From the NCBI GenBank assembly GCA_964354245.1, contig CAYGZI010000001.1:1-36161 (forward strand): a stretch of 36,161 nt of DNA, read 5' to 3'. Within the stretch, counting starts at the first letter, position 1; each line of letters opens with the position of its first letter. The translations under genes were made by a program, and so were the position numbers. The stretch is from an uncultured Planctomycetaceae bacterium (GTDB lineage Bacteria; Planctomycetota; Planctomycetia; Pirellulales; Thermoguttaceae). This document shows positions 1-21,382 of this stretch, in pieces. The notes beneath the pieces were generated by a model. It saw only the letters and a list, made by a program, of their open reading frames with translations. It searched no databases and was not told where the DNA came from.

Positions 1-1417
1 CCTCTTGGCCGACGGGTCCGACGGCTCCAACGAGGTGACGCACCTCTTGCTGGAGATCGTCGACGAGATGCACCTCTTGCAGCCCAGCAGCAACTTGCAG
101 CTTTCCCGAAAGAGCCCCGACGCCCTGCTCAAGCACGCCCTGCGCGTCGTGCGCAAGGGCTACGGCTTCCCCTCGATCTTCAATACCGACGCCGTGGTCC
201 AGGAGCAGCTTCGCCAAGGCAAGTCGCTGGAGGACGCCCGGGCAGGCGGGTGCAGCGGCTGCGTCGAGACCGGGGCCTTCGGAAAAGAGGCCTACATCCT
301 CACCGGATACTTCAACCTGGTGAAGGTCCTGGAGTTGGTCTTGCACGACGGCGTCGATCCGCGCACGGGCCACCAGCTCGGCCTCCGCACCGGGAACGCC
401 GACAGCTTTGCCACGTTTGACGACCTGCTGGCCGCCTTCCGCAAGCAACTGCACCATTTCATCGGGATCAAGCTCCAGGGCAACCAGCTCATCGAGCAGA
501 TGTACGCCGCCACGATGCCCGCCCCGTTCCTCTCCGTCATCACCGACGACTGCATCCGCAAGGGCAAGGACTACAACGCCGGCGGGGCCCGCTACAACAA
601 CTCCTACATCCAGTTTGTCGGCATCGGCAGCCTGACCGATTGCCTCTCGGCCCTGAAGCAGCTCGTCTTCGAGGGAAAAGGGGACAGGTCCAATTCGCCG
701 GAACGGCCCGCGGCCGACGTTCAGTCGGTGCCCGGCTTCGCACAAATTGGACCTGTCCCCTTTTCCCTCTCGCTTGCGGACCTCGTGCGCGCGTTGGACG
801 CCGATTTCGCGGGCAGCGAGACCTTGCGCCACCGGCTGGTCAACCGGACCCGCAAGTACGGCAACGACGACGACTGGGCCGACGCCATCATGACGCGATG
901 CTTCAATGCCCTCTTCGAGGAACTCGACGGGCGGCCGAACTCGAAGGGCGGGCGGTACCGCGTCGAGATGCTGCCGACCACCTGCCACGTCTACTTCGGC
1001 TCGGTCACGGGGGCCATGCCCGACGGTCGCAAGGCCGGCCTGCCCCTCTCCGAAGGCATCTCGCCGGTGCAAGGCGCGGACCGCCGCGGGCCCACGGCCG
1101 TCATTAAATCGGCGGCCAAGATGGACCACCTCAAGACCGGCGGCACGCTGTTGAACATGAAGTTCACGCCCTCGCTCTTGGGCGACGAAAACGGCATCGA
1201 TAAGCTGGCCCATTTGGTCCGGAGCTACTTCAAGATGGACGGCCACCACGTGCAGTTCAACGTAGTCCGCGCCGAGACGCTCCGCGAGGCCCAGGGCAAT
1301 CCCGAGTCCCACCGCGACCTCATCGTCCGCGTGGCCGGCTACAGCGACTACTTCTGCGACCTCTCCGGCGAGCTCCAGGAAGAAATCATCGCCCGGACGG
1401 AACACGCGGAATTCTGA
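1..1417 (+). CDS. Glycyl radical enzyme, C-terminal ~470 aa (PFL2 / glycerol-dehydratase / choline-lyase-like clade); 5' end outside window
   Basis: ORF 5..1417 is open to the window edge. It has a GCVE-type catalytic Cys loop (GGCSGCVETGAFGKE) and the C-terminal glycyl-radical motif IVRVAGYSDYF. Stop is TGA 1415-1417. It carries a 99-bp in-frame palindromic insert at 671-769. Confidence 0.85.
   Translation, partial: LLADGSDGSNEVTHLLLEIVDEMHLLQPSSNLQLSRKSPDALLKHALRVVRKGYGFPSIFNTDAVVQEQLRQGKSLEDARAGGCSGCVETGAFGKEAYILTGYFNLVKVLELVLHDGVDPRTGHQLGLRTGNADSFATFDDLLAAFRKQLHHFIGIKLQGNQLIEQMYAATMPAPFLSVITDDCIRKGKDYNAGGARYNNSYIQFVGIGSLTDCLSALKQLVFEGKGDRSNSPERPAADVQSVPGFAQIGPVPFSLSLADLVRALDADFAGSETLRHRLVNRTRKYGNDDDWADAIMTRCFNALFEELDGRPNSKGGRYRVEMLPTTCHVYFGSVTGAMPDGRKAGLPLSEGISPVQGADRRGPTAVIKSAAKMDHLKTGGTLLNMKFTPSLLGDENGIDKLAHLVRSYFKMDGHHVQFNVVRAETLREAQGNPESHRDLIVRVAGYSDYFCDLSGELQEEIIARTEHAEF
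671..769. repeat. Family A nested palindromic element, copy 1 (in frame inside the GRE gene)
   Basis: Perfect 25-bp inverted arms 671-695 (gagggaaaaggggacaggtccaatt) and 745-769, with a 49-bp loop. Total is 99 bp = 33 codons. All three sense frames are free of stops (translated by hand). Confidence 0.85.
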
Positions 1418-3940: not shown

Positions 3941-5272
3941 CTAAATCCCGCCGATGATTTCCCATCGATCCGGCTGTCCGTGCACTGCTCGTACGAATGG
4001 TGAGAATGATCTGACGCCTTTCTTGCCTTCGGCTTCCCACTCTACCTTAACCGGCACCTGAAGCGATCTGGTTTCACTGTGCGCAGCGGGCTTACCGACT
4101 TCGACAATCCGCAAGAACTTGACGCGTCCGAAGCCTTCCTTCATCTTTTCCGCGGGCATCCCCGAACAGATCGTCCCGGCCTTCTTGTAGTCTTTCGCGA
4201 TGAGAGCCTCGAAGAACTCCCGAACTACCTTTGTCGCTATCTCGTTGTCGCTGAGACCGCCCTTCGCAAGGCCGATCTCTTGATGGAATTGGTCAATCTT
4301 GAATACGTCTTTGGGCAACTCCAGTTGGAAGACGCCCGGACTTATCTCCTTGTTGTAGTCGAGGTACTCGCGCTGGCTCATCTGCTTCCACTGGTCGCCA
4401 TGGCGGCGATATACGGTCACCCGTTCGACAAGCTTGCTCTTGGGGTCCACCTCGTACACCTCCCGGCGATCGGGGGCGGCTTTGGACGTTACTGTCAGCG
4501 TGACAGGCTCGCCTTTATTGCCAGGCTCCTCCGTTACTACTTGCGCTTTGCCGGCACGTTGCCCTGCCTGAAGCTCCTCAAATGCCAGTTTCGGGTCAAA
4601 AAGAGCCCGCATCTTCATCAACTCCTTGAGGGCATCCTTGTCTCTGACAATCGCGAACGAGTTCTTCTTCTTGAACCAAACCTCGGCCTTCTCTCCCGAC
4701 AGGATGACGACCTTCGGGCCGTCGTCGGGGCTTAATCCATCCATCCGCGCTTGCAGCGGGCTGCCGTCTGGCTTGAGTTGTACCCAGGCTTCGCCCAGCT
4801 CCTCCGCGGGAGTGATCTTGACGTGGTAGCTGGTGACGTGCTTGTTCGCTTGCACGGTTTGCTCCAGGGCATACGCGGGAGCCGAGAACGAAAACATGGA
4901 TACGTAGAGGATCACACTGGCGGCCAGAGCCATCACCGTTGCCGCCGCCGCAACGCTCAGTCGTTTATGCGCGAGAATCATGGTCCTAATCCTTTCAAAG
5001 AAACGGTTGTCGAATACGTCGTCACGGACTCTTGATTGGTGCTGTTGCTGCCCAAGCACCGTTTGCTCGACCGGCCCGAGGCTGCGCGCAAGCTCCTCGA
5101 AACCCGATCGGACCTCCTTCTCCTCTTCCACCAAAGCGTCCCGGGCCTCCCGGCACCTGTCGCACAGAGCGACGTGGTCTTGCAGTTCCCGCGCAGCAGG
5201 GGGATCCAATTCGCCCATGACGAAGGCTACGATGGCTTCGAACCGGTCTTTGCACTGCTTCGCATCGCTCAT
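3941..5272 (-). CDS. Anti-sigma factor (zf-HC2 N-terminus, one TM helix, large periplasmic domain)
   Basis: N-terminal HVALCDRCREARDAL (H-x3-C-x2-C), TM segment LSVAAAATVMALAASVILYV, and an ATGA overlap with the upstream ECF sigma gene. The ectodomain is unassigned; LolA-like or NTF2-like are only guesses. Confidence 0.75.
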   Translation of the reverse strand: MSDAKQCKDRFEAIVAFVMGELDPPAARELQDHVALCDRCREARDALVEEEKEVRSGFEELARSLGPVEQTVLGQQQHQSRVRDDVFDNRFFERIRTMILAHKRLSVAAAATVMALAASVILYVSMFSFSAPAYALEQTVQANKHVTSYHVKITPAEELGEAWVQLKPDGSPLQARMDGLSPDDGPKVVILSGEKAEVWFKKKNSFAIVRDKDALKELMKMRALFDPKLAFEELQAGQRAGKAQVVTEEPGNKGEPVTLTVTSKAAPDRREVYEVDPKSKLVERVTVYRRHGDQWKQMSQREYLDYNKEISPGVFQLELPKDVFKIDQFHQEIGLAKGGLSDNEIATKVVREFFEALIAKDYKKAGTICSGMPAEKMKEGFGRVKFLRIVEVGKPAAHSETRSLQVPVKVEWEAEGKKGVRSFSPFVRAVHGQPDRWEIIGGI

Positions 5273-5793
5273 GGCCGCTCCTCCTGCAGAAGATCGTGAA
5301 GCATGGCTCTGGCACGCACCAGGCGTTGCCTGACCGCCGGTTCCGTTGTGCCCAAGGAAGCCGCGACGCCCGAACAGTTGCGTCCGTCCAGGTAGTAGAG
5401 CACGATGGCTTCACGGTAGTTCTGAGGGAGTTTGTGGATGGCCTCGTGCAGTCGCTCGCAAACGGCGTTGCCGCCGGCAGCCGGAGTCGATGGTTCATCC
5501 AAGAGCGGTTCCACTGGTTTCCGCCTACGGTGGAAGTTGATGCACTCTCGACGCGCGACCTGCAACAGCCAGGCACGGGCCCGCGCAGGTTCCCGCAGGC
5601 TGGAAGTCTTTGCGATAGCCTTCAGGAAGACGGCTTGCACGACGTCTTCGGCGTCATGGTAGTTCCGGGTATTGGCGAGACAGACCGCAAACACAGCCTG
5701 GGCATGAAGGCGGAACAGAGCACCAGGCATCGCCGCACCGCGATCATCCGGCGCCTGTCCGGCCCAGGACCTGTTGGAACTCATCTCGTTCAT
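5269..5793 (-). CDS. ECF-type RNA polymerase sigma factor
   Basis: 174 aa. Region 2 is DAEDVVQAVFLKA...AWLLQVARRECINFHRRR. Region 4 is LPQNYREAIVLYYLDGRNCSGVAASLGTTEPAVRQRLVRAR. It is translationally coupled to the anti-sigma gene. Confidence 0.85.
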   Translation of the reverse strand: MNEMSSNRSWAGQAPDDRGAAMPGALFRLHAQAVFAVCLANTRNYHDAEDVVQAVFLKAIAKTSSLREPARARAWLLQVARRECINFHRRRKPVEPLLDEPSTPAAGGNAVCERLHEAIHKLPQNYREAIVLYYLDGRNCSGVAASLGTTEPAVRQRLVRARAMLHDLLQEERP

Positions 5794-5896
5794 CCAATAA
5801 CAAGACGCGGCTGGCGCTCAGAATGTGACATCCCGCACTCGAGCGGCCTGCCGTCCGCAGCGGTGTTGCCGCCGTAACATATTGCGCCGCAGACGA

Positions 5897-8605
5897 TTAC
5901 GGTTTCCCCCGCGGCTCCACCCCCAGCAAGTGCCGCACAAAGAAATCCTGCCGCCGGCGGCTGCCGTAAGGGCTCTCGGCCGAGCCGTGGCCGCGCCCGG
6001 TCATGACCACGAGGTCAAAATCCTTGTCGGCCTTGATGAGGGCATTGGCGACCTGCATGGTCGAGGCCGGGTCCACGTTCTCGTCCATCTCGCCCACAAA
6101 GAGCATCAGCTTGCCCTGGAGCCGGTGGGCCTGGGTGACGTTGGACTGCTCCGCGTAGTGCGGGCCGACCGGCCAGCCCATCCATTGCTCGTTCCACCAG
6201 ATCTTGTCCATGCGGTTGTCGTGGCAGCCGCAGTCGGAGACCGCGACCTTGTAGAAGTCGCCGTGGGCCAGGAGGGCCCGGGTCGAGCTTTGCCCGCCGG
6301 CCGAGCCGCCGTAGATGCCCACGCGGCCGGTGTCCATCTGCGGGTACTTCGCCGCGGCGGCCTTGATCCAGAGGATGCGGTCGGGCAAGCCCGAATCGCC
6401 GAGGTTCTTCCAGCACACGTCGTGGAATCGCTTCGAGCGGTTCGACGTGCCCATGCCGTCGATCTTCACCAGTATGAAACCCAGCTCCGCCATGGCCTGC
6501 GGGGAGTGGAAAGGGCGGAAGGGTTTGGGCACAAACGAGCCTTGCGGCCCGGCGTAGATCTCCTCGATGATCGGGTACTTCTTCTTCGGGTCGAAGTTAG
6601 TGGGCCGGAAGATCACGCCGTAGATGTCCGTGGTGCCGTCGCGCCCCTTGGCCACGAACCGTTCCGGCGCCTGCCAGCCGGTCTTCACGAGCTCCGACCA
6701 ATCGGCCCGCTCCAGCCCGCAGGCCAGCTTGCCGTCCTCCGTGCGGCGAAGCTCGATCACGGGCGCCAGGTCCACGCGCGACCAGGTGTCGATGAAGAAC
6801 CGGCGGTCGGGCGAGTACTCGATCGAGTGCGTGCCGTCGCCCTCGGTGAGGATCACCAGGCCCGAGCCGTCGAAGTTGACCCGGCAGTAGTGGACGTAAT
6901 ACGGGTCCTGCCCGGGCCGGATGCCGCCGGCGCGGAACCAGACCTGCCGCTTCTCGTCGTCCACGCGGTCCACGCCGCGCACGGCCCACGGGCCCTTGGT
7001 GATCTGGTTCTTCGCGTTCCTGCCGGAAAAGGGGACAGGCCCCTTTTGTGCAGAGCACCCTTCGGGCCCTTCGGGCAAAAGGGGCCTGTCCCCTTTTCCG
7101 GCGGCGGTGTCGTACAGATAGAGGTGGTTCCAGCCGCCGCGCTCGGACATCCATAGGATCTCGCGGGTCTTGTCGATGTAGTGCGAGAACTGCTTGCCGG
7201 AGTAGTCGATGAAGGTGCGGCACTGTTCGTCGATGATCGGATGGGCCTTGCCGGTGGCGGCGTCCACGGCCACGACGCGGAGCACCTGGTGGCCCCGCTG
7301 GTTGTAGAGGAACGTAAACCGCTTCGAATCGGGCTCCCAGCGCAGGTCGGTGATGCTCCAGGGGTTGGGGAGAAGCTCGTCGCTCACGGGGATTTGCCTG
7401 CGCCCCGGCACGTCGAACAACTGCGGCTTGGCCAGCGGGATGCGGTCGCCCGGCTTGAGGTAGTCATAGGAGTGCAACTTGGGCTGCAGTTGGTCCTTGG
7501 GCGACGACTCGACGTAGTAGACCTTGCGCTCCTCCCCCTTCTTCGTGCGCAATACGGCAATCCGCTTGGAATCCGGCGACCACCAGATGCGGCCGGAGTA
7601 TTCATCGTTGGCAGTGCCGTCGGTGCTCAGGCGGAACTCCTCCCCCTTCTTGAGGTCGCGGACGTAGAGGTTCTGGTCCTTGAAGAACGCCCGCCACTGG
7701 CCGTCGGGCGAGGCGGCCTCGCGCGGCCTGCCCGTCGAAAGTTTCTTGCCCTTGCGCATGGGCTTTCCCGGCGCGGGGCCGGACAAGGGGACAGGCACCT
7801 TTTGTGTGAAACACCCTTCGGGCCCTTCGGGCAAAAGGTGCCTGTCCCCTTCTCCGTCGCCGTCGACGACTGCCGTACCGGGCTCTTCGGTGGCCTCGAA
7901 CGCCGCCAGCACCTTTCCCTGCCGGTCGGTCACGAGCCAGACGTGGCCGGCGAACGTGTGCTGCTGGCGCTCTTGGCCGGCCTGGACCGTGCCGTAGGGC
8001 CTGCGCTCGCCGTCGGCATCGAGCCAGAAGATGTCGACGTCCGCCTTGGTCCGGTTGACGAAGGTGATCGTGGTCTCCGGGCCGGTTCGTCGGCTGGCCT
8101 TTGGCGTCTCCTGGACAGGCAGCGACGGCTTGGCCCCAGGCTTGCCGGCTTTGCTCTCCTTTTTTTGGCGCAGCTCGTAGCTTCGCAGATCGCAGCGCCA
8201 GAGTCTGCCTTCGGACCGTAGCAGCACGACGGGCTCTTTGTCGCTGAACTCGAGCTGCTCGATGGGCAGGCGCTTGGCGTCGATCGGTTTGCCGGCGGCC
8301 TTGGCCAGCGCCGCTGCCAGCCTCGCGTGGTCGAACGCCGGCTGGCGCGTCCCCTTGACCGCATCGACGAGCACGAACTCCCGCTCGCCCCCGGCCAGGT
8401 CGTTGCGGTACCAGAAGCGGGTGTTACCGGCAAACCAGTGCGGCGCCACGCGGGTCTTGAAGACCTTGCCGTCGGTCCGCGCGCGAAGGCTGTTGGCGCG
8501 CTCGTAATCCGACCGCGTGCCCTGCGCCGGCAAGGATGCGGCCAGACCAAGAAGAACAAGCACGCCGGCAGAAGCCAACCGGAGAACACGTGTTGGGGCT
8601 ATCAT
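5897..8605 (-). CDS. S9 family serine peptidase (DPP-IV-like beta-propeller plus prolyl-oligopeptidase catalytic domain), secreted
   Basis: Signal peptide MIAPTRVLRLASAGVLVLLGLAASLPAQG. Propeller repeats (WSPDSKRIA, WEPDSKRF). Nucleophile elbow GIYGGSAGG, acid FVGEMDENV, and His GRGHG. It carries two in-frame palindromic inserts (7022-7102 and 7781-7855). Confidence 0.85.
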   Translation of the reverse strand: MIAPTRVLRLASAGVLVLLGLAASLPAQGTRSDYERANSLRARTDGKVFKTRVAPHWFAGNTRFWYRNDLAGGEREFVLVDAVKGTRQPAFDHARLAAALAKAAGKPIDAKRLPIEQLEFSDKEPVVLLRSEGRLWRCDLRSYELRQKKESKAGKPGAKPSLPVQETPKASRRTGPETTITFVNRTKADVDIFWLDADGERRPYGTVQAGQERQQHTFAGHVWLVTDRQGKVLAAFEATEEPGTAVVDGDGEGDRHLLPEGPEGCFTQKVPVPLSGPAPGKPMRKGKKLSTGRPREAASPDGQWRAFFKDQNLYVRDLKKGEEFRLSTDGTANDEYSGRIWWSPDSKRIAVLRTKKGEERKVYYVESSPKDQLQPKLHSYDYLKPGDRIPLAKPQLFDVPGRRQIPVSDELLPNPWSITDLRWEPDSKRFTFLYNQRGHQVLRVVAVDAATGKAHPIIDEQCRTFIDYSGKQFSHYIDKTREILWMSERGGWNHLYLYDTAAGKGDRPLLPEGPEGCSAQKGPVPFSGRNAKNQITKGPWAVRGVDRVDDEKRQVWFRAGGIRPGQDPYYVHYCRVNFDGSGLVILTEGDGTHSIEYSPDRRFFIDTWSRVDLAPVIELRRTEDGKLACGLERADWSELVKTGWQAPERFVAKGRDGTTDIYGVIFRPTNFDPKKKYPIIEEIYAGPQGSFVPKPFRPFHSPQAMAELGFILVKIDGMGTSNRSKRFHDVCWKNLGDSGLPDRILWIKAAAAKYPQMDTGRVGIYGGSAGGQSSTRALLAHGDFYKVAVSDCGCHDNRMDKIWWNEQWMGWPVGPHYAEQSNVTQAHRLQGKLMLFVGEMDENVDPASTMQVANALIKADKDFDLVVMTGRGHGSAESPYGSRRRQDFFVRHLLGVEPRGKP
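7022..7102. repeat. Family A nested palindromic element, copy 2 (in frame in S9 peptidase)
   Basis: Perfect 27-bp inverted arms 7022-7048 (gccggaaaaggggacaggccccttttg) and 7076-7102. The loop holds the tandem cccttcggg cccttcggg. Total is 81 bp = 27 codons, host peptide AGKGDRPLLPEGPEGCSAQKGPVPFSG. All six frames are stop-free (checked by hand). Confidence 0.9.
7781..7855. repeat. Family A nested palindromic element, copy 3 (in frame in S9 peptidase)
   Basis: Perfect 20-bp arms 7785-7804 (aaggggacaggcaccttttg) and 7832-7851. With one mismatch the pairing extends to 7781-7855, which is 75 bp = 25 codons. It has the same cccttcgggcccttcggg loop as copy 2. Host peptide is GEGDRHLLPEGPEGCFTQKVPVPLS. 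Confidence 0.85.
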
Positions 8606-8687
8606 TGCAGTTTGGCGCCGGGTCGGCCTACTCCTTCAGAACAAATGGTGGGATTCCAATAACGAGTGACGAATGTCGAAACATAAC

Positions 8688-11600
8688 CTACTTGCTTGCC
8701 TCCGCGTCAGCGAAGGCGGCTCTGAAGTCTGATCGCGTCAGGATGGCCAAAGCCCAAATCCCGATCGGAAGGCTCAACGGCCAAGTGAGACTCAGCGGGA
8801 GCATGGCGAGAACGCAGCCAATGGTTGCCCAAAGGGACGACAGCCGATTTCTCGTCTGGACGCCTGCCAGCATCACGAGGACGTTGGGGATGACGAGCAC
8901 CGCGTATAAGCGGGCCAAGTTGGGGAACGCAATTGACTCGTTGATCCATACAAGCGGGGCAAGCGTATAGCCCGCCGCGACCGAACCAAGAAGGTGCGCT
9001 GCCGCCGTCAGGGTTCCGATTGCCCCGGTCACGAACAGTGCAGTCCCGAGTGCCTTGATCCGTTGAGCCAACGAGTCCAAATCGGTCGTCTGCGCGTCGA
9101 ATGCCTCTTCCACCTCCCGTCGGTTCTGTACCATCAGGGCCCAAATCCCCATCGGCAGTCCCAGAAGCCAAGCCGGGTTCCACGGCAGCACCGCGATGAC
9201 AGAACCGGTCAGGGAGAGCCACCGCGACTGGAACCGCTTGAGGCTCCAGCCCCCTAAGATCATCATCACGCCGAGCAGGCACGCTGCAGCCATATAGGCC
9301 ATTCCTCCGAAGACGAATGGAACGAACAAGGATTCCCGCACCCCCGGCCAGACCATTCCTACGACGACCCAAGACGCCGGGATCAGAATAAACGGCAGAG
9401 CGATTGCCAGAGCCCCGGCAACGAGCAAGCCCGTGGCCGGGCCTTTGACTTGATCCGCGGGCGTGCGCACGGCTTCGGCAGCGCGTTGATAGCGGCGCTC
9501 GGACCATTTCTCGCGCGCAGCCGCCGGGCTCCGAAGCTCCTTTTCTCCCGCCGGCCCTGGGGACTCCGCTAATCTGGGCCGCGCCCGGCGGATTGCCAGA
9601 CAGCCCAGGGCGAGGAGCGCAAGCCCCATGGCGAAGGCAATCCACAATCCAGGGCCGCTCCGCTGATGGATGTTCTTGGCGACCCAGTCCACCCCTTCTT
9701 GCACGGGTCGCGTCCCCACGTCCACCCCGTGCCAACTGCCCGCCACTGTCAGCCGCCCCGCTGCGAGACCGACCGGACGGGTCAGACCCCAGAACAGAAT
9801 GCTCGTCACGGCTACGACGATGGCCCCGGCAACGACCATGATGCGGGGCTGCCACGAGCGACCCCGACTGAAGAAGTCCGTCACGAAACACACCAGGAAG
9901 ACGGCGAGAAACGTCAGGCCGGTGACGTTTCCGTACCAGTTCCACGAGGGCGTCAGGGCGCCCCCTGGGCCCCCTACGCCGTACACCCGCGGGATGAGCC
10001 TGACCCATGGCAGATCTGGAATGCGGGTCGCCAGCCCGCCCAGCAAGCAGATGACCAAGGCCCAGAAGCCGACCGTTCCCAGCCGGTAGCGCCGCTCCGT
10101 CTCGTGTGCCGCGGCCAGCCGCCGACGGTGCCGCCGCACGATGGTCCGGATCCCGAGAATCCACGTGGCCAGGAACACCACGACGAGTACCGTGCCGGCA
10201 GAATCGTAGTCCAGTCCAACCGATTGCCCGGTCCTCGTCAGAAGACCACCGCCGACGGGTTCGCTCGTGAACGGCCCGATCTTGATCCCGGAGGGATAGC
10301 TACGTTCAGAGGATTCAGGGTAGTCAACGGGGCGCTGGCCACCTGGGAGGAGCCCGCTGGTCGCTTCCTTCACGAGGCGGATCAGTTCCACGGCCTCCTC
10401 CTGAACGCCGGGCTTGGTGATGTCGATGCCGGCGGCCTTCATCCATTCGGCGACGGATTCCGGCCGGGGTTCATCGCGCGACCTAGTCACCTCTCCGCCG
10501 GGGGCGGTCCAGCGCCATTCCTCGCGGAACAGGTCGGACTCCAGCGTCGCACTGCGCCACGTGTCCAACAGCTCTATCTTCGCTATCCCAGTCCACGGCT
10601 TCTTGGCGATGAGGTCACGTGCGTGCAACCCTCCCCATCCCCAGCCGTACAAGTAACGCTTGCCGCCCAGCCACAACCTGTGATACGCGCCCGACTGAGG
10701 CGCCAGTGAGATCTGCCAGCTCTCGCCGTACGTGTGTGGCCACCAAGCTCTGAAGGCACTCGGCAGCCCAACCCCAAAGAGGCCGACAAGAAGGCCGGTC
10801 CACGCGGCGAGTCTGACGAGCAGCATTGCCCTTCGTCGGAGGCTGCGGCGGCTGGGAGGCATCTCGACCGCCGGTGCGGCCGACGGTCCCGACGGCCGCA
10901 GCGTGCTGCTGATCAGCTCCACCTCCGTCTTCACCTCGCTGGCGTGCTGATAGCGTTGCTCGGGCTCCTTCTCCAAGGCCCGCAGGACCACTTCGTCCAG
11001 GCGCACGTCGATCACGACCTTCTGCGAGGGCGGGGCGAAGCGGCCGATGGGGAGCTCGCCGGTGAGCATCTCGTAGAAGACCACGCCGAGCGAATAGATG
11101 TCGGCCCGGTGATCGACCGCTTGGGGATGCTCTATCTGTTCCGGGGCCATGTAGCTCCAGGTGCCCATCACTTGGCCGGTGCCGGTCAGCGTGAAGGGTT
11201 TCTCGACCGGCGAGACGCCAGTGCTACCGGTAGTGCCCAGGAGCTTGGCCAGGCCGAAGTCGGCGATCTTGACCCGGCCACGCTTGTCCACCAGGATGTT
11301 CTCCGGCTTGATGTCGCGGTGGACAATCCCCTCGTCGTGCGCGAATTGGAGGGCCTCGCAGACTTGCGGCACGATCGCCAGGGCGTCGCGGGGCTGGAGA
11401 TGTCCGGCGCGGAGCATGCGGCGGAGATCCACGCCGTCAACGTATTCCATGACGAAGTAGTACAATGGGCCCTCACCCCCGCCCCCTCTCCCCAAGGGGG
11501 AGAGGGGAGGTTGATCGCCGGCCCCTCTCCCCGGAGCGGAGAGGGGAGTTTGGCCGAAGTCGTAGACCGCCACGATGTTTGGATGGCTCAGCTTGGCCAG

Positions 11601-11960
11601 TGCCCGGGCCTCGCGCGTGAAGCGTTCGGCAAAGGCCGGATCGGCACCCACCTCGCGGGGGAGGATCTTGAGGGCCACCAGCCGATCCAGTCCCGGCTGC
11701 CGGGCCTTGTACACCGCCCCCATGCCGCCGTGGCCCAGGAGATCGAGGATTTCAAGCTGGGGAAACTGCGGGGCCAGTTCTGCCGGGCTGGGCGGGATAA
11801 AATGGCCCGGCGAGCGCGCGCCCGGTTCCGGTTCAGGCCCGGACGGCGCGCTGGCCTCGGTCTCCAGTCGGGCCTTCAGCAGGCACTCGGGGCACAGCCC
11901 CTCAGGGGCGTCCGCCGGCAGTCCCCCCCCACATTGCGGGCAACGGTGCGCTTCCGACAT
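8688..11960 (-). CDS. Ser/Thr protein kinase with N-terminal zinc ribbon and a ~700-aa polytopic membrane C-terminal region
   Basis: Zinc ribbon CPQCGGGL..CPECLL. Kinase motifs GHGGMGAVYKA, VALKIL, HRDIKPENIL, IADFGLAK and SYMAPEQ. Many hydrophobic segments follow. A 26-aa palindromic-repeat insert sits in the beta4-beta5 turn (11471-11549). Confidence 0.9.
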   Translation of the reverse strand: MSEAHRCPQCGGGLPADAPEGLCPECLLKARLETEASAPSGPEPEPGARSPGHFIPPSPAELAPQFPQLEILDLLGHGGMGAVYKARQPGLDRLVALKILPREVGADPAFAERFTREARALAKLSHPNIVAVYDFGQTPLSAPGRGAGDQPPLSPLGRGGGGEGPLYYFVMEYVDGVDLRRMLRAGHLQPRDALAIVPQVCEALQFAHDEGIVHRDIKPENILVDKRGRVKIADFGLAKLLGTTGSTGVSPVEKPFTLTGTGQVMGTWSYMAPEQIEHPQAVDHRADIYSLGVVFYEMLTGELPIGRFAPPSQKVVIDVRLDEVVLRALEKEPEQRYQHASEVKTEVELISSTLRPSGPSAAPAVEMPPSRRSLRRRAMLLVRLAAWTGLLVGLFGVGLPSAFRAWWPHTYGESWQISLAPQSGAYHRLWLGGKRYLYGWGWGGLHARDLIAKKPWTGIAKIELLDTWRSATLESDLFREEWRWTAPGGEVTRSRDEPRPESVAEWMKAAGIDITKPGVQEEAVELIRLVKEATSGLLPGGQRPVDYPESSERSYPSGIKIGPFTSEPVGGGLLTRTGQSVGLDYDSAGTVLVVVFLATWILGIRTIVRRHRRRLAAAHETERRYRLGTVGFWALVICLLGGLATRIPDLPWVRLIPRVYGVGGPGGALTPSWNWYGNVTGLTFLAVFLVCFVTDFFSRGRSWQPRIMVVAGAIVVAVTSILFWGLTRPVGLAAGRLTVAGSWHGVDVGTRPVQEGVDWVAKNIHQRSGPGLWIAFAMGLALLALGCLAIRRARPRLAESPGPAGEKELRSPAAAREKWSERRYQRAAEAVRTPADQVKGPATGLLVAGALAIALPFILIPASWVVVGMVWPGVRESLFVPFVFGGMAYMAAACLLGVMMILGGWSLKRFQSRWLSLTGSVIAVLPWNPAWLLGLPMGIWALMVQNRREVEEAFDAQTTDLDSLAQRIKALGTALFVTGAIGTLTAAAHLLGSVAAGYTLAPLVWINESIAFPNLARLYAVLVIPNVLVMLAGVQTRNRLSSLWATIGCVLAMLPLSLTWPLSLPIGIWALAILTRSDFRAAFADAEASK
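11471..11549. repeat. Family C hairpin repeats, two tandem copies in frame inside the kinase domain
   Basis: Hairpin 1 is 11483-11507 (cccctctcccc-aag-ggggagagggg, 11-bp stem). Hairpin 2 is 11522-11546 (cccctctcc-7 nt-ggagagggg). The flanking ccctcaccccc at 11471-11481 matches the tail of the copy at 18855-18893. Host peptide is PLSAPGRGAGDQPPLSPLGRGGGGEG. Confidence 0.85.
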
Positions 11961-12046
11961 GGCTGTTCTCCGTTGGTAGGAGCCGTTTCTACTACCTACT
12001 GACCGAAATCCGGCGAAAGGTTACAGGGGGAAGGCCAAGGGTTTTT

Positions 12047-12194
12047 ACCGCAGAGGACGCAGAGATCGCAGAGGATGACGGAGATCAGGGAGTTGAAGAG
12101 CCGCGTCTTGCCGGTGGCGACCCCTGTCCGCGTACCATTCTCAACCATTTCCCTTTCTTTGTGAATCCTCTGCGTTCTCTGCGTCCTCTGCGGT
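12047..12194. mobile_element. MITE-like 148-bp element with 29-bp terminal inverted repeats
   Basis: Left arm 12047-12075 is accgcagaggacgcagagatcgcagagga. Right arm 12166-12194 is tcctctgcgttctctgcgtcctctgcggt. 28 of 29 positions are complementary, with 90 bp between the arms. It lies between the ECF sigma stop (12211) and the kinase start (11960). No transposase is present. Confidence 0.55.
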
Positions 12195-12210
12195 TTGTTC
12201 ATTTGCCCAG

Positions 12211-12978
12211 CTAACGGCTTCCCGCCCGCACGGCAGCCAGGAGTGCCCGCCTTTCGTCCTCGACCTCCTCGGGGCCCGCGACCGTCTGGGCGATCTCTTC
12301 CTCCAGCAGCTCGCGGTAGCGTCGTCGCAGGCGGTGGACCGCCACCTTAATTGCCCCTTCGGTCATGGCCAACTCGTCGGCTATCTGCTGGTAGGACTGC
12401 GAGCCTTTGGCGCCGGTGAGAAACTCCTTAAGCCGCTCAAACAAAGCGAGCTTCCCCGCGGCGGCGTGCTCGTCGCGGAGCCGTTTGAGGACCTGCTCCA
12501 GCAGGGCCAGGGCCCAGCGCCTTTCGTACAGCCGTTCGGGCGTCAGTTCGTCGGCCGGGTCCAGGTTGTACCGGCTTTCGGCAGACGGAAAGTCCAACGA
12601 AAGGATGCGCCGCCCCCCGCCGCGTTTTTTCGCCTTCGCTCGGTCCCGCTCGTGGGCCAGGAAGTGCTTCATCGCCGCCAGCAAAAAAGAGCGGAAGCGG
12701 CCGCGCCGCGGGTCAACGACCGCCAAGTACTTCTTCTCCAACAGCCGGGCGAAGAACTCCTGCGTCAGGTCCTGGGCGTCGGGAGCCGAATAGCCTTCGC
12801 GGCGCACAAAGGCGTACAGCGGGAACCAGTAGCTCTCGCAGAGCGTCGCCAGGGCACGTCTGGACGCGGTTGAGCCGCGGCGGCCCGCACCGAGCACCAG
12901 GCTCCAATGGGTCGTGGCGAACCGGCCCGCACCGGGCCCGACCGAAGCCTGTCGGCCCTCGTCGCCGGAGTGCGCCAT
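12211..12978 (-). CDS. ECF-type sigma factor with no adjacent anti-sigma, followed by a Ser/Thr kinase
   Basis: Region 2 is DAQDLTQEFFARLLEK..FRSFLLAAMKHFLAHERDR. Region 4 is SYQQIADELAMTEGAIKVAVHRLRRR. I placed the start at ATG 12978 (MAHSGDEG), because the longer ORF (to 13071) reads through REP copy 2. Confidence 0.8.
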   Translation of the reverse strand: MAHSGDEGRQASVGPGAGRFATTHWSLVLGAGRRGSTASRRALATLCESYWFPLYAFVRREGYSAPDAQDLTQEFFARLLEKKYLAVVDPRRGRFRSFLLAAMKHFLAHERDRAKAKKRGGGRRILSLDFPSAESRYNLDPADELTPERLYERRWALALLEQVLKRLRDEHAAAGKLALFERLKEFLTGAKGSQSYQQIADELAMTEGAIKVAVHRLRRRYRELLEEEIAQTVAGPEEVEDERRALLAAVRAGSR

Positions 12979-13025: not shown

Positions 13026-13058
13026 AGACTCCCGAAGTCTTGAAGACTTCGGAAGTCT
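13026..13058. repeat. Family B REP-like hairpin, copy 2
   Basis: agactcccgaagtcttgaagacttcggaagtct lies between the DUF885 stop (13068) and the ECF sigma start (12978). Confidence 0.8.
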
Positions 13059-13067
13059 CTTTGGTGA

Positions 13068-14837
13068 TCACCGCCGCTCTCGCAAACGCTCCCGCACCAG
13101 CTCCGGCAGGTACTTGACCGGCACCGAGCCTTGGTCCAGGACCGCCTCGTGGTAGCGGCCCAGGTCGAACCGCTCGCCCAGCTCGCGCTCGACCTCCTGG
13201 CGCAGGCGGTACATCGCCATCCGGCCCACGAAATAGGTCGAGAGCTGGCAGGAACTCTGCTTCGAGCGGACGACCTTGAGCCGCGCCTCGCCCTCCGACT
13301 GAAACGAGCGGCGCATGAGGAGGTCCAGGGCCTCGTCGTCGGTCATCGCCGTGCAGTGCATCTTGTGGTCGAGGATCGTATTGGCCACGGCGCGGAGATA
13401 GAACTTGAGCTGCGTGAGCCGCAACGCCAGGTCGCCGCCGCCGTAGCCCTGGTCGAGCATCGTCTGCTCGGTGTAGACCGCCCAGCCTTCGATATACACG
13501 CCCGATCCCAGCACCCGGCGCACTAGCGAAGGACTGCGGTTGGCGTACTCAAGCTGCACGTAGTGCCCCGGATAGGCCTCGTGGATGGTGAGGATCTGGA
13601 GCATGTGGCTGTTGTACTCCTCCAAGAGGCTCTTCACCCGCTTCGCGTCCCAGTCCTTGGGCGGCGGGCTGACCGCGTACATGCTCGCCGCCCGCGGATC
13701 CAAGGGCGGGGCTGAGTTCAGGTACGCCGTCGCGTTGCCCCGCTGAAACTCCGGCATCTCGATCACCCGGCAGCGGTCGGGCTCCGGCAAACGCAGGATG
13801 TCGCGCTCGCGGATGAACTGCTGAATGTTCGCCACCGTTGCCCGGGCGTCGCGAGTCAGGTCCTCCGGCTTGCCGTGCTCCTGGGCCACCGCGTGGAGCA
13901 CTTGGGCGATCGTGGCGTGGCGGCCTTGTTCGTCGTCCGGCGGCAGGGGCTTCTTGGGGAAATAGCGGCTCCAAAGCTGCCGGGCGATGACGTACATTTC
14001 CCGCTCCACGCGATCGAACTCCGACTCCGCCATGGCCAGCACTTGCCCCGCGTTCAGGCCGGCGTCGAGTGTCAGCTCCAGCTTTCGGGCGAACTTCTCC
14101 GCGCCCAACCGCCACTCGCCGTTGGCCCGCGGCAACAGGTCCTTCTCAAGAAACTCCTGATACTCCTTCAGACAAGCCGCCACGGGCTTAGCCGCGGCCT
14201 TCAAGGTCTCCAATTGCGGCGTCGGTCCCGCCAGGTCGAACAGTTCCCCCTCGTAGAACCCGATTGCCCCGCGGTTCTGCCGGATCGCCGTCTCCGTGGC
14301 CACCCGCGACGGGTTCTTGAGATTCTCCCGCGCCGCCGCTACCACCTTCGGGATCTGCTTCATCCGGGCGATGGCGTTGGCGAGGTTGGTTTCCTTGGGC
14401 AACGTGGACTGCGTCAGGAGCAGAAACAGGCTGTCGCTTATGTATCCGCTGTAGACCCGGGGGTCCTGCTCGAAGGGGTGCGTGTTCTCCGACAGCCACA
14501 GCGACTTTCCAAGCTCGTGCTGGAGGATCCGGTAATCGAGCTTTCCCGCGGGCGAGAGCTTCTCGAAATCCACCTGCCGGGGCAGGTCCTCGAGCGTCTT
14601 GCGGTCGTACACGACCCAGCCGGCCCGGGCCTTGGCCGAAAGATCGTCCAAGAGGTGGTCGAACCGGTGGTCGCCCAGTCCCGTGGCCTCCGTCGGCCGC
14701 ATCCGGAAGCCCTCTTCGAGATACTGCTTGAAAAAGGCGCTGAGCTTCGCATCCATTTCTTCGGCATTGCTCCGAGACGGGCCGGCGGCCACAAGCCACC
14801 CGAGGATGGTTACGCGGAGAATCGCTGCTGGTTTCAT
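13068..14837 (-). CDS. DUF885 family protein (metallopeptidase-like), secreted
   Basis: It has the HEAYPGHYVQ motif typical of DUF885. The signal peptide MKPAAILRVTILGWLVAAG starts from ATG 14837; the ORF-track maximum is 14924. Confidence 0.75.
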   Translation of the reverse strand: MKPAAILRVTILGWLVAAGPSRSNAEEMDAKLSAFFKQYLEEGFRMRPTEATGLGDHRFDHLLDDLSAKARAGWVVYDRKTLEDLPRQVDFEKLSPAGKLDYRILQHELGKSLWLSENTHPFEQDPRVYSGYISDSLFLLLTQSTLPKETNLANAIARMKQIPKVVAAARENLKNPSRVATETAIRQNRGAIGFYEGELFDLAGPTPQLETLKAAAKPVAACLKEYQEFLEKDLLPRANGEWRLGAEKFARKLELTLDAGLNAGQVLAMAESEFDRVEREMYVIARQLWSRYFPKKPLPPDDEQGRHATIAQVLHAVAQEHGKPEDLTRDARATVANIQQFIRERDILRLPEPDRCRVIEMPEFQRGNATAYLNSAPPLDPRAASMYAVSPPPKDWDAKRVKSLLEEYNSHMLQILTIHEAYPGHYVQLEYANRSPSLVRRVLGSGVYIEGWAVYTEQTMLDQGYGGGDLALRLTQLKFYLRAVANTILDHKMHCTAMTDDEALDLLMRRSFQSEGEARLKVVRSKQSSCQLSTYFVGRMAMYRLRQEVERELGERFDLGRYHEAVLDQGSVPVKYLPELVRERLRERR

Positions 14838-15259
14838 GGGAGTCGGCTCCGTGAGGTTCGTTCGACGGCCCGGCGCCACCGGGCGCAATAGCATAAGTCT
14901 AATCGCCAAAGGGCCGCTTGCCAAGAAACCCCTTGGGGTAGGTTCTCTGCGTGCGGGGTCTGCGCCAAACCGAGCCCTTGCGCAACTTTAACGGAGAATC
15001 ATTGTCGCGCTAATAATGCCCTAACGCAGCCGGGGATAATGAAGGTGGCGTCGCGAGGCTCCCGGACCGGCAAGGCCCGATGTGCCGGCCCGAGGAGCGG
15101 CCACGGTCCGCCGGCGGACGCTCGGAGGCAAGTAGAAGCCATAACGATCGGAAAGGAGGTGTAACGCTACCGGCCGAGCGAGTCGAAAATCGCGCAAGCA
15201 AGATCGTTGTCCACAGGATCATTCACACCACAGTCACCCACGATAAGGAGAGAACGTCC

Positions 15260-16499: not shown

Positions 16500-19115
16500 A
16501 TGGACACCCGACGAGTCAAAGTGTGGAGCGCGACGCTCGGTCTGCTTCTTCTCTCAATCCCGCCCACCGCGCTTCCGGCCGAGCCGCCCGCGCCGGTCAC
16601 GAGGACCGATTACGACGAGGGGGACTGGTACATCGTCCGCGGCGACCAGAAGCTCCCCTACTACGGGATGCGCGACTCCTGGGTCTACAACCGCGCGATG
16701 ACGTGGCTCGACAAGCGATCGGGCGTCGACGGCGCAATCCTCTGCTACTCGACGCAATCGCCGCTGCCGCTGACCGGGAAGTCCCAAGTCTCGCGGTGGT
16801 ACGCCGGCGAGGGCAACGAGCTGGCCGACGTGGATGGAGTGGACGAGCAGTGTACTCGATTCACCAAGCGAAACCCCAAGTCCATTTGGGACCACGCCGC
16901 CCTCCCGCCATTTCAATTCCAGATCGAACAGCACCCCATCGCCGAGCTGGAGGTCAAAGAGGCCACGCACCCGTGGCAGTTCTTCGCGGTCGTCAAGGGG
17001 CGCGGCGGCCCGCCGCTCTTCACCAGCCCCTGGCACAACGGGCCCGGCAAGCTCACGGTGAATCTCTTGGATCTCTATCGGCAGAAGGGCTATCACCATC
17101 ACTTCGCTGAGATGATCTTCTTCGTCGCTACCTGGACCGAAGAGGCCGGCCAAGAAGCAAGCGTCGTCTTCCGCCTCCGGCTCCTCGGCAGCGAGGCGAT
17201 CGTGCCTTCGCTGCCGGTGATCCGCACCGTCGAGCACTCCAGGAGTGAAGGCGTGCCGATCTATGCCGTGGTGCTCGACCGCCAGGCCAAACGGCTCGGC
17301 AAGGACGTTGTGGACGTGAGCGCCACGCTCGGCAATCGGACGGTAAGGCTCGCGGAAGACGGCAAAGGCATCTGGCGAGCGGTGATCCGCGGACTCCCCG
17401 TCGGCGAGCATCGTGCCCAACTCCGCGCGGTCTGGAAGAGCGGGCCGGAGAAATCGGTGGCGTCCCAACTCCGAATCCACATCACCGACGGACAATTCCT
17501 CGGCTACGACCCCGCCCTGCGCCTTCTGACCCGCGCCGGCAAGCCGCTCGGGCCGTTGGCCGGTTCCTACCGCGGCCAGGCCGTGTTCAAGGGGCTCGGC
17601 ACTCCGCGGGAATCGCTGCTGCACGGACAGCTCGATTGGCAGCTTGCGATCCTCGATCCGGTCAGGCCCGACTACGGGTTCCACTTCTGGGAATCGCTCA
17701 CCGAGCGGGAACTCGACGCAGACTACGCTTATCTTCAGCAGTGCGGCTGGAACCTCGTTCACCTGTGCCAAGGCTGGCTCTGGTGGCCCAGGCTCGACGC
17801 CGCCGGCCGGCTCTCGCCCTACAACGCGGAGCAACTGGCCAACGTCTGCGCAGTGGCCGGCCGGCATGGGCTGCGCGTCCATCTGGCGGTCAGCCACTAT
17901 CCGCTCGGCAAGAGAAGCCCGCCCTACGCGCAGTATCTTGAGGCCGGCTTTCAATCGGCCGATTACCGCAACCCTCAGTCCCGCTTCTTCCGCATGTTCG
18001 GCGACTACCTGGAGCAGTTGGCCACCGTGTTCCGCGACGAGACGGTGCTATCGAGCTTCACCGCGGCCGGCGAAGGCGACCCGGAGTGCGGCAAGGACTT
18101 CGTCAATATGGTTTACGATGAGCTTCAGGCCCACGACGGCAATCACCTGGTGCTGGCCGAGCCGCACCACCAGGTCACGCGCAACCCGAACTTCTATCGC
18201 CAGGAAGGCTGGAAGCCGCTCCTGGGCGGGATGCGGACCTACTTCGTCGATCGCCTGCCGCAGGAGCACGTCGGCGTGGAGTTCAAGCTCGCGGCCATGG
18301 GCCACGTCTTCATGGGCGAAGGCTGTTTCTACGGCTTCCTGGGCGGCAATCACCAGTACATGAACCCGCAGATGCCGATCAACTCCTACCGCGAGCGGAC
18401 GCGGCAGACGCTCTACACCGGGCTGGCCCACTGCAACCCGATCCTGCTCACGTGGGAAGAGCGGATCGTCGAGGACGAGCAGATCGTCCTGTCCCGGGTC
18501 TGCCGGGCCGTGGACTGGTCCAAGCGGTTCCAGACCCCGCCGCTTGCCATCCGGGTCAATACCAAGTTAATGCCGGTGGCCGGGCGCGAGCCGCTTGCCA
18601 AGTACGAGAAGGCCCTCTCCAGTCTCCCGCTGGAGTGCCGCTACCTGTGGGAAGACGAGCCCGTGCCGCCCGGCGTGCTCTACACGATCGATGCCCGGGA
18701 GCCCTTCGCCGTTCCAACATTCACCTCCTCCGGCGGCAAGCTACCCGACGCGCTCAAGGCCCGGATGCCGCTCTTGCTTCCTCCGGGCTTCTCCGCGGAC
18801 TACTCCTGGAGCGAAGACCGGCGCACGCTGTTGGCGTTCATTCGCCGCATTGCTCCCCTCTCCCGTTCCGGGAGAGGGGCCGGGGGTGAGGGGACGCCGC
18901 AGTCAAAGGACGGACGTATTGACGGCCGGCCGCCGGGCGCCGCCTCCCCGGCCGCCCTCCGCCTCCGCAACTTCCCGGCCGAAGAGTTGTCCTTTCAACT
19001 CTTCGACCTTGCCACGAAGGATGTCGTCCGCCAAGGCACATTCCGTGGTGCGACGGCTCTCGAAATCCCCGCGTCGTCGAGCGAGTGGTTCTTGCTGATC
19101 AATGAGACCAGGTAG
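16500..19115 (+). CDS. Secreted 871-aa protein of unknown function (possible TIM-barrel glycosidase-like core; not established)
   Basis: Signal peptide MDTRRVKVWSATLGLLLLSIPPTALPA. It is a long uninterrupted ORF with ordinary amino-acid composition, unlike its antisense ORF. No motif was recognised with certainty. It carries an in-frame family C hairpin at 18855-18893. Confidence 0.65.
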   Translation: MDTRRVKVWSATLGLLLLSIPPTALPAEPPAPVTRTDYDEGDWYIVRGDQKLPYYGMRDSWVYNRAMTWLDKRSGVDGAILCYSTQSPLPLTGKSQVSRWYAGEGNELADVDGVDEQCTRFTKRNPKSIWDHAALPPFQFQIEQHPIAELEVKEATHPWQFFAVVKGRGGPPLFTSPWHNGPGKLTVNLLDLYRQKGYHHHFAEMIFFVATWTEEAGQEASVVFRLRLLGSEAIVPSLPVIRTVEHSRSEGVPIYAVVLDRQAKRLGKDVVDVSATLGNRTVRLAEDGKGIWRAVIRGLPVGEHRAQLRAVWKSGPEKSVASQLRIHITDGQFLGYDPALRLLTRAGKPLGPLAGSYRGQAVFKGLGTPRESLLHGQLDWQLAILDPVRPDYGFHFWESLTERELDADYAYLQQCGWNLVHLCQGWLWWPRLDAAGRLSPYNAEQLANVCAVAGRHGLRVHLAVSHYPLGKRSPPYAQYLEAGFQSADYRNPQSRFFRMFGDYLEQLATVFRDETVLSSFTAAGEGDPECGKDFVNMVYDELQAHDGNHLVLAEPHHQVTRNPNFYRQEGWKPLLGGMRTYFVDRLPQEHVGVEFKLAAMGHVFMGEGCFYGFLGGNHQYMNPQMPINSYRERTRQTLYTGLAHCNPILLTWEERIVEDEQIVLSRVCRAVDWSKRFQTPPLAIRVNTKLMPVAGREPLAKYEKALSSLPLECRYLWEDEPVPPGVLYTIDAREPFAVPTFTSSGGKLPDALKARMPLLLPPGFSADYSWSEDRRTLLAFIRRIAPLSRSGRGAGGEGTPQSKDGRIDGRPPGAASPAALRLRNFPAEELSFQLFDLATKDVVRQGTFRGATALEIPASSSEWFLLINETR
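18855..18893. repeat. Family C hairpin repeat, in frame in the 871-aa protein gene
   Basis: cccctctccc-gttcc-gggagagggg (10-bp stem, 18855-18879) is followed by ccgggggtgagggg. This is the reverse complement of the kinase copy at 11471-11507. Host peptide is PLSRSGRGAGGEG. Confidence 0.85.
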
Positions 19116-21342: not shown

Positions 21343-21382
21343 GGGTGTGTACCTCCAGGATCTCGGGACAGAGACTTCGACA

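Follow-up and report, generated by a model that had tools for sequence, protein, structure and literature searches.

Introduction

Palindromic repeats that code for protein were at first regarded as a peculiarity of Rickettsia, and later only scattered repetitive extragenic palindromes (REPs) were recognised within open reading frames (ORFs) of other bacteria. The Rickettsia palindromic elements (RPEs) are, as later papers summarise them, inserted in frame, compatible with the fold of the host protein and without a known transposase (Ogata et al., 2000, 2002, via PMC10969869, PMC3733652). REPs, single or double, occur inside ORFs in several species; in Opitutus terrae, a PVC bacterium, one ORF contains two of them (Di Nocera et al., 2013, PMC3733652). 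Transposable elements of the miniature inverted-repeat type (MITEs) carry short inverted repeats at their ends, which enclose a unique internal stretch; they show a target-site duplication, and a parent insertion sequence (IS) can usually be identified (PMC2759123, PMC10969869). Here, we analyse a family of palindromic elements of about 80 nt, two copies of which lie in frame within one S9 peptidase gene on a stretch of 36,161 nucleotides from an uncultured Planctomycetaceae bacterium (the window). With a probability of roughly 0.78, we consider the copies to belong to a short, non-autonomous, hairpin-dependent selfish palindromic repeat that colonises Planctomycetota and survives, translated, within genes.

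In behaviour, the closest described systems are the RPEs, and in anatomy the REPINs, in which two inverted REPs are combined; membership of either group is not claimed. As the summaries cited above portray the RPEs, the planctomycete element resembles them in being a short, palindromic, high-copy repeat without coding capacity of its own, in its recurrent in-frame presence in unrelated functional genes, where it encodes a conserved peptide at a position that the fold may likewise tolerate, in having no known transposase, and in that more than one copy can occur per gene. By the same summaries, it differs from them in its hosts (free-living Planctomycetota with large genomes as opposed to reduced intracellular Alphaproteobacteria), in its size (~80 nt, RPEs being ~100-150 nt), in its G+C-rich composition, its nearly perfect palindrome and its conserved, structured loop, and in that the family is open in six frames and spread over several orders instead of one genus. 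Given the difference in composition and length, sequence homology to RPE families is unlikely. Two features that mark an RPE-like class are present, namely a palindromic unit that recurs at many unrelated loci and stands in frame in conserved genes whose orthologues are without the segment. The element is a new phylum-wide family of a known class, that of protein-coding palindromic selfish elements, and the same phenomenon is seen in at least five groups at the level of order or family.

As in REPINs, two inverted hairpin units form a larger hairpin; the arms in the window read AAAAGGGG-ACAGG-CCCCTTTT, and relatives have GGTG/CACC for GGGG/CCCC. High copy number, absence of a target duplication and compensatory evolution of the stem are likewise shared with REPs and REPINs. 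Unlike these, the aligned planctomycete copies carry no GTAG/CGTC tag at the foot, where only a GA/TC dinucleotide is constant; GTAG is present in the cross-phylum variant described below, on the loop side of the stem. Nor is the element predominantly extragenic, since all three clear copies in the window and many elsewhere lie inside genes or Pfam-supported ORFs. Its arms are longer, a conserved loop of 27 nt is part of the unit, and no REP-associated tyrosine transposase (RAYT, the Y1 HUH enzyme that mobilises REPs and REPINs) was found nearby. With MITEs such as ERIC/RU, Correia/NEMIS and Nezha it has in common the small size, the lack of autonomy, inverted-repeat termini, a stable RNA fold and occasional in-frame copies (PMC2759123, PMC10969869); unlike in them, a single palindrome makes up the entire unit, and no target-site duplication or parent IS was found at the loci surveyed here. 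A last comparison concerns the PARCELs, which, in the part of their description drawn on here (PMC2996958), are also palindromic DNA, coding on either strand and distributed horizontally within genes. According to that part, however, they are tandem intragenic repeats that form amphipathic modules of surface proteins in Mollicutes and some eukaryotic microbes, whereas the planctomycete element occurs as single dispersed hairpin insertions in housekeeping enzymes.

Two palindromes in frame within one peptidase gene

The host gene (5897-8605, minus strand) encodes a protein of 902 aa with VHL-beta, DPPIV_N and Peptidase_S9 domains (Pfam), for which a protein search returned 6304 homologues. A preliminary description, made from the sequence alone, had reported two related palindromes in it, called copies 2 and 3 here. 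Copy 2 was delimited correctly: the 81-nt perfect palindrome at 7022-7102 corresponds to residues 502-528, read on the minus strand, and consists of arms at 7022-7048 and 7076-7102 that are 100% complementary over 27 nt each, with a loop of 27 nt between them. For copy 3, perfect arms of 20 bp and the limits 7781-7855 had been given. The 20 perfect inner nucleotides are found at 7785-7804 and 7832-7851, and those limits describe a fair core of a longer element (7774-7862) with arms of 31 nt (7774-7804 and 7832-7862) that are 90% complementary. In the protein it covers approximately residues 248-276, part of the linker that joins the VHL-beta domain to the propeller. The two copies are direct repeats with 88% identity over 85 nt and, as had been noted, share the loop CCCTTCGGGCCCTTCGGG in identical orientation. 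This loop is common to copies 2 and 3 only (two matches in the window, 0.15 expected), and the arm core AAAAGGGGACAGGCCCCTTTT has eight matches in the window and none in 100 shuffles.

Both copies are read in one frame of the peptidase ORF, also in agreement with the preliminary description, and encode AGKGDRPLLPEGPEGCSAQKGPVPFSG and DGEGDRHLLPEGPEGCFTQKVPVPLSG, respectively. The frame relative to the arms is the same for both (GKGDR...PVPFS); peptides expected of the element, if it is translated, would include GDRPLLPEGPEGCSAQK and GDRSNLPERPGGCFAQIGPVPFF. Two further claims needed refinement. Freedom from stop codons in all six frames is true of copy 2 and, as set out below, of most of the family; copy 3 has lost one frame, which is not the one used, to a single TGA. 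In a single copy such openness is only mildly unusual, as 7% of 81-nt windows in this sequence of 65% GC have it. The small hairpin nested in each arm pairs exactly in copy 2 and imperfectly in copy 3. It is weak in the common planctomycete subfamily (GGTCCAATTTG arms) and is a trait of the subfamily of the window's lineage, not of the whole family. In the mRNA, very stable hairpins are predicted for copy 2 (-70.7 kcal/mol, z = -9.3) and copy 3 (-63.2 kcal/mol, z = -8.4), and the hairpins within their loops, GTGC-AGA-GCAC in copy 2 and GTGT-GAA-ACAC in copy 3, are one compensated pair apart.

The peptidase ORF is intact, and in the alignment the columns near the GGSAGG serine motif and the His and Asp of the catalytic region are conserved. 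Measured against the closest orthologue (locus L001), the gene has a dN/dS ratio of 0.17 over its whole length, which falls to 0.14 when the propeller and catalytic part is taken alone. By these comparisons, the gene looks functional and under purifying selection.

Orthologues without the inserts

Eighteen peptidase homologues with 65-87% identity were aligned, and both segments are missing from all of them. Site 1, that of copy 2, lies within the conserved motif ...NHLYLYDxxxG/VKNQITKG..., where the slash marks the position of the insert; the motif is contiguous in each of the 18 orthologues. At the DNA level, the closest orthologue reads GCC ACC GGC CGC GTG AAG without interruption, where the window has GCC GCC GG[A AAA GGG ... 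TTT TCC GG]C AGG AAC GCG AAG, a net gain of 26 codons. Site 2, that of copy 3, falls in the interdomain linker named above, a variable stretch, and the net gain relative to the L001 DNA is about 21 codons. As the orthologues are without the segments and the DNA of the closest one is contiguous at site 1, copies 2 and 3 are insertions and not ancestral. The comparison with orthologues had been proposed in the preliminary description, and no equivalent peptide encoded by non-palindromic DNA turned up in the 18 proteins. The empty sites it anticipated were found; a target-site duplication could not be defined.

An AlphaFold2 model of the peptidase, built on a 19-sequence alignment, is poor overall (mean pLDDT 57, pTM 0.39), with values of 70-90 in the propeller. 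Both inserts (residues 249-294 and 503-528) appear in it as coil without secondary structure at pLDDT below 50, and insert 1 falls between strands 492-499 and 531-534. In the model, insert 1 thus occupies a turn between two strands. This agrees with the earlier proposal that the LYDxxxG motif is interrupted at a turn; the further statement that this turn lies between propeller blades asks more than so weak a model can give.

A copy with a longer loop (copy 1, 671-769) is present in a second gene of the window. It is a 99-nt palindrome with perfect arms of 25 nt and a loop of 49 nt that contains an extra hairpin. The copy is in frame as EGKGDRSNSPERPAADVQSVPGFAQIGPVPFSL (again GKGDR...PVPFS) in a gene for a glycyl-radical enzyme resembling pyruvate formate-lyase (PFL-like/Gly_radical; 5-1417, plus strand), which the start of the window probably truncates. 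The Pfam match of this gene is split into two stretches, and the orthologous PFL gene in L001 (5757-8117) has 28 codons fewer at this site. The same long-loop variant was found at three other loci (L014, L076 and L128).

Net insert sizes of 78, ~63 and 84 nt for copies 2, 3 and 1 stand against palindromes of 81, ~85 and 99 nt. In each case the palindrome exceeds the insert in length, so a few of its outermost bases may have come from the host. The exact ends of the elements are not fixable from these comparisons because the nearest orthologue is only ~85% identical in DNA.

A repeat family across Planctomycetota

In a scan of one genome per species with the pattern AAGGGGACAGG-N40-70-CCTGTCCCCTT, at least 120 loci were obtained. 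Among the matches listed, 41 copies have the arms and the loop TGTGCGAAGCACCCTCCGGGCCGTTCCGGCA in common, the loop being in either orientation. They come from metagenome-assembled genomes (MAGs) labelled Planctomycetaceae, Planctomycetia, Pirellulales/Pirellulaceae, Thermoguttaceae, Gemmataceae and Phycisphaerae, and two long-read MAGs hold at least 7-8 copies each. That the copies in the peptidase gene represent one repeat family was thereby borne out, the same sequence recurring at unrelated intergenic and intragenic loci in many genomes. Each unit consists of arms of ~26 nt around AAAGGGGACAGG and the conserved 27-nt loop with small hairpins of its own. Unit sizes are ~79-81 nt, or 97-99 nt for the long-loop variant, and the form met most often is a perfect palindrome of 79 nt, GGGAAAAAGGGGACAGGTCCAATTTG-loop-CAAATTGGACCTGTCCCCTTTTTCCC. 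Copies of the GGGAAAAA type have a constant GA before or TC after the palindrome, on one side only (15 clear copies in alignment A3, 12 of them on one side relative to the loop and three on the other); this one-sided dinucleotide implies a unit of 81 nt.

The loop variant of the window itself was found on five metagenome contigs from two samples. Their arms read AAAAGGTG-ACAGG-CACCTTTT, in which the arm hairpin is kept by a compensating change relative to copy 2. In a metagenome contig with the window's subfamily (L132:2260-3099, plus strand), the element stands just upstream of a SpoVG domain; this domain has 117 residues for a profile of 82 positions and may contain a further insertion.

Pattern matches also occur on ten IMG/VR viral contigs, and seven of these have planctomycete-type copies. 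In four of the seven (L126, L129, L130 and L131), the copy is in frame near the N-terminus of apparently the same ORF, which in L130 ends at the contig edge and in L126, the contig for which Pfam was checked, encodes 493 aa with a Peptidase_S49 domain. Such contigs could mark a route of horizontal spread or be misclassified host fragments. An Rfam scan of the whole window gave no family, and the consensus element had no BLAST match among PLSDB plasmids or INPHARED phages. Literature searches on planctomycete MITEs, REPINs and in-frame repeats returned no description of the family, and searches with the motif gave only chance matches.

The scan also detected variant arms, AAAAAGGGGACAGGCTACTTTTT and AAAAAGTAGCCTGTCCCCTTTTT, which are identical over ~23 nt and enclose unrelated loops. 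Loci with this variant include L002, L003, L010, L011, L013, L019, L023, L032, L044, L047, L048, L051, L052, L060 and L066, besides others, and belong to Myxococcaceae, Nitrospirota, Firmicutes (Desulfoscipio, Desulfotomaculum, Syntrophomonadaceae), Aminicenantes and further taxa. In Myxococcaceae, each variant arm forms the loop of a GCGCAG...CTGCGC hairpin of its own. Identity of the variant arms across phyla suggests a shared recognition site or horizontal spread.

Maintenance of the hairpin

Covariation was assessed in an alignment of 35 copies, 11 columns of each arm being fixed by the search pattern. In the arms and the loop hairpins, 90.9% of the cells are paired, as compared with 44-56% when the partners are slid by 1-3 columns. 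Changes on both sides of a pair were counted in 114 cells, whereas shuffling gave 51.8 +/- 5.6 and none of 500 shuffles reached 114. The covarying columns are 22-26 with 62-66 in the inner arm and 5-8 with 80-83 in the outer arm, and at least eight arm haplotypes exist, each with a matching partner arm. Even the outermost bases vary among copies and yet stay complementary, for example GGCGTCGG...CCGACGCC.

A direct view of such a change is offered by an orthologous intergenic copy in two diverged MAGs (L009:1922-1988 and L080:6983-7049), which sits between the stop codon of an FtsX-type permease gene and the start codon of an ABC ATPase gene. The arms of the two copies differ only by TC->CA on one side and GA->TG on the other, and one more difference is located in the loop. 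Divergence is greater in the coding sequence on either side than in the element.

Open frames and in-frame copies in other genes

Of the 41 family copies, 33 are open in six frames, compared with 11.4% of windows of the same length in the same loci. When the consensus is shuffled, openness in six frames is seen in 2.3% of cases if the palindrome is preserved and in 0.15% if it is not. Host genes in other genomes were called from stop-to-stop ORFs that span the copies, together with Pfam scans. By this procedure, two in-frame copies were found in pheT, the gene for the beta chain of phenylalanyl-tRNA synthetase (L049:2298-4592, plus strand), one at aa 204-227 in the B3_4 domain and the other at aa 584-607 in the core domain; this essential gene parallels the peptidase with its two copies. 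One copy each was found in two Ser/Thr kinases, interrupted within the kinase domain (Pfam), and in an Nqo3-like subunit, a DUF2079 membrane protein, a radical-SAM/BATS enzyme and a KdpD sensor (GAF domain).

A peptide profile, made by concatenating the six reading frames of 14 copies, matched 462 predicted proteins at E <=0.01 among 6505 candidates. The matched proteins inspected include NuoC, CoaBC, a ferredoxin-type protein, sigma-70 and kinases; a UvrD-like helicase (UvrD-C) fragment and one kinase have two copies each. Many others among the matches are domain-less 'hypothetical proteins', in which intergenic copies have probably been called as spurious ORFs. Each of the three frames is used, and GKGDR...PVPF is the commonest in the domain-supported cases tallied, which are a non-systematic sample. 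The frame of the host is kept in every gene-internal copy examined.

Proposed mode of spread and survival

We propose that the element reaches new sites, intergenic or coding, by a process that would depend on the hairpin or constantly restore it, since the arms differ among copies and yet almost always match their own partner. The likeliest agents would be an HUH/Y1-type enzyme that recognises single-strand hairpins, template switching within the palindrome, or both. To persist in a gene, a copy would need a net length that keeps the frame, freedom from stops in the frame that is read, and a landing site in a tolerant surface loop or linker, where about 26 extra residues can be accommodated. 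As the consensus is free of stops in six frames, many insertions pass the reading-frame filter, and the gene-internal copies would be what is left after selection against frame shifts, stops and hits in structured cores. From their reading frames, we infer that the elements are translated as coil loops of ~26 residues. In the peptidase, the two copies would be transcribed and translated as Gly/Pro-rich coil, one in a beta-turn of the propeller and the other in an interdomain linker, and the enzyme would remain functional.

Several observations speak against this proposal or weaken its supports. The covariation may be overstated, as 11 columns of each arm were set by the search pattern and a few subfamilies inherited by many copies could contribute to it. 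No direct repeat was detected at the flanks of the 35 aligned copies. Variable but complementary outer bases and short net inserts are not what a cut-and-paste element with fixed ends predicts; a palindrome that is corrected or extended from within fits them better. Template switching at quasi-palindromes is an established process, and it may act on the planctomycete element. The 'intragenic' hosts in other genomes are stop-to-stop ORFs with Pfam matches and not annotated genes, the AlphaFold2 model is poor overall and bears out only the local statement on the propeller turn, and translation itself is deduced from sequence. Furthermore, no mobilising enzyme came to light: Pfam searches of the 11 large ORFs of the window revealed no transposase, the ORFs of at least 110 aa clustered from ~120 loci gave as recurrent neighbours only ABC ATPases, kinases and similar common families, and a search for unpaired arms flanking a gene produced nothing convincing. 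Neither a RAYT nor another gene recurring next to the copies was found in the 8-kb pieces around them, and an autonomous IS with the same termini was not seen in ~130 loci, plasmids or phages.

The class 3 Y1 HUH proteins were considered as cognate enzymes. They are enriched in planctomycetes and associated with high-copy structures that have a CnGA foot, GCCGCGACC... (Quentin et al., 2018, PMC6006769). This candidate was rejected on the evidence at hand, the associated structures (CCGAGCCGCGACC..., CACGAGCCGGAAGC...) being unrelated to the element.

If the proposal of a translated selfish palindrome is confirmed, in-frame entry of selfish DNA would be a general route of protein-loop evolution and a natural test of insertion tolerance in enzymes. 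Hundreds of predicted proteins are affected, essential enzymes among them. The proposal would also account for 'low-complexity' inserts that are puzzling in planctomycete annotation, and for hypothetical proteins that are spurious there, and the family, with its conserved loop, covarying arms and no known transposase, would be a clean system in which to follow the upkeep and spread of palindromes.

Alternative explanations

A bolder version of the proposal would make the element one specialised for life inside genes. Freedom from stops would have been selected, the copies would form loops of ~27 codons even in pheT, nuoC and coaBC, spread would be templated by the hairpin, and the family would possibly be part of a cross-phylum superfamily with the AAGGGGACAGG core and a major source of new surface loops in planctomycete proteins. 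Propagation by an HUH-type enzyme or by template switching within the palindrome would then keep the arms perfectly complementary and let the palindrome grow into host sequence. Taken together, these claims are tentative, and we think it rather unlikely that all of them hold.

A regulatory role of the hairpin is the next explanation to be weighed. The palindrome would be a device of the host, such as an mRNA stabiliser, an attenuator, a ribosome-pausing signal, a bidirectional terminator or a protein-binding site, and coding copies would tune expression of the genes that contain them. REPs and MITEs are known to act in such ways (PMC3733652, PMC10969869). The extreme stability of the mRNA hairpins (-70.7 and -63.2 kcal/mol, z about -9), conservation of the loop across orders, covariation of the arms and the intergenic copy that two diverged MAGs have kept between two operon genes and conserved better than the neighbouring coding sequence would all be expected of a regulatory device. 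On the other hand, the genes that contain copies are unrelated, each of the three frames and either orientation is represented, and orthologues manage without them. A consensus terminator scan calls no terminator at copies 2 or 3, no Rfam family is matched, and the absence of stops in six frames is left unexplained. As the primary explanation, regulation is therefore doubtful; it is compatible with the proposal of a selfish repeat as a secondary, exapted role of some copies.

The elements could also escape translation, either by being cut from the mRNA, which is then re-ligated, or through ribosomal bypass of the kind seen in T4 gene 60; the mature peptidase would then equal its orthologues. 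A perfect helix of 27 bp in a coding region is a severe obstacle for translation, and insertions occur even in essential genes such as pheT. Yet neither bypass nor removal would select against stops or for frame, whereas 33 of 41 copies are open in six frames (~2-11% expected) and every gene-internal copy examined keeps the frame of its host. The analogues in Rickettsia, moreover, are read as in-frame translational fusions compatible with the fold, as PMC10969869 reports with reference to Ogata (2000, 2002). We consider this explanation improbable, and more so than regulation.

Still harder to sustain is the idea of a beneficial peptide module, in which the segments would serve as a loop or linker with a function at the protein level and the palindromic DNA would be incidental. 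It draws on the prevalence of the GKGDR...PVPFS frame in the non-systematic tally, which comprises the three window copies, hosts at L017, L026, L070, L099 and L120, NuoC, CoaBC and a kinase, and on the Gly/Pro-rich, loop-like character of the peptide. But the same DNA is also intergenic, and in the two other frames or in both orientations it yields unrelated peptides (EKGTG...LSPF, KRGQ...CPLF). The host proteins are functionally unrelated, the orthologues of the peptidase are without the segment, the inserts are modelled as low-confidence coil, and conservation tracks base pairing and not codons. Finally, although library artefacts such as fold-back chimeras can yield palindromes, an artefact of assembly or sequencing is barely credible for an element that is found in many independent assemblies from different projects and assemblers, always within continuous ORFs or conserved synteny, and whose copies differ in a structured, compensatory manner.

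Other repeats and gene order in the window

A more distant relative of the element at 24432-24530 is a 99-nt palindrome with arms of 29 nt at 93% that contains CGGGGACAGGCACC and GGGGACAGG. It is open in six frames and in frame within a GT1 glycosyltransferase ORF (23677-25488, minus strand). A short hairpin resembling one arm, CCGGAAAAGGTGCC-AGG-CACCTTTTCCGG, is located at 34946-34985, within the stop-to-stop ORF of a methyltransferase and upstream of its domain.

A second, unrelated family of palindromes (CCCCTCTCCCC-loop-GGGGAGAGGGG) is represented at 11470-11552 and at 18853-18892. At 11470-11552, two tandem copies stand in frame within the Ser/Thr kinase domain encoded by ORF 8688-11960 (minus strand) and are read as QTPLSAPGRGAGDQPPLSPLGRGGGGEG; the Pkinase match of this ORF covers 274 residues for 231 profile positions. 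The third copy, at 18853-18892, is in frame in an 871-aa ORF without Pfam match (16500-19115, plus strand). In-frame palindromes in this genome are thus not confined to one family. Copies of a third family, AGACTCCCGAAGTCTTCAAGACTTCGGAAGTCTCT, occur at 1411-1459, 13026-13060 and 21381-21429 and are 86-97% identical. One of them begins 7 nt past the PFL-like gene's stop codon, another is placed at the 5' end of the ORF for an extracytoplasmic function (ECF) sigma factor, and one inside the stop-to-stop ORF of a gene resembling glucuronyl esterases.

Larger repeats are also present. A direct repeat of 252 nt (87%; 29987-30238 and 31838-32089) flanks a B12-binding radical-SAM gene (30283-31827), and an inverted repeat of 30 nt, ACCGCAGAGGACGCAGAGATCGCAGAGGAT, with 97% complementarity and 88 nt between its arms (12047-12076 and 12165-12194), is found in the interval from the kinase gene to the sigma-factor ORF. 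In L001, the genes for the PFL activase, the PFL-like enzyme, a DUF885 protein and the DPP-IV-type peptidase are adjacent and co-oriented (4623-12586). Three of these genes, those for the PFL-like enzyme (5-1417), the peptidase (5897-8605, minus strand) and the DUF885 protein (13068-14924, minus strand), are apart in the window, with changed orientations, and an ECF sigma/anti-sigma pair and the kinase gene lie between them. As far as gene order tells, this repeat-rich region is rearranged relative to L001.

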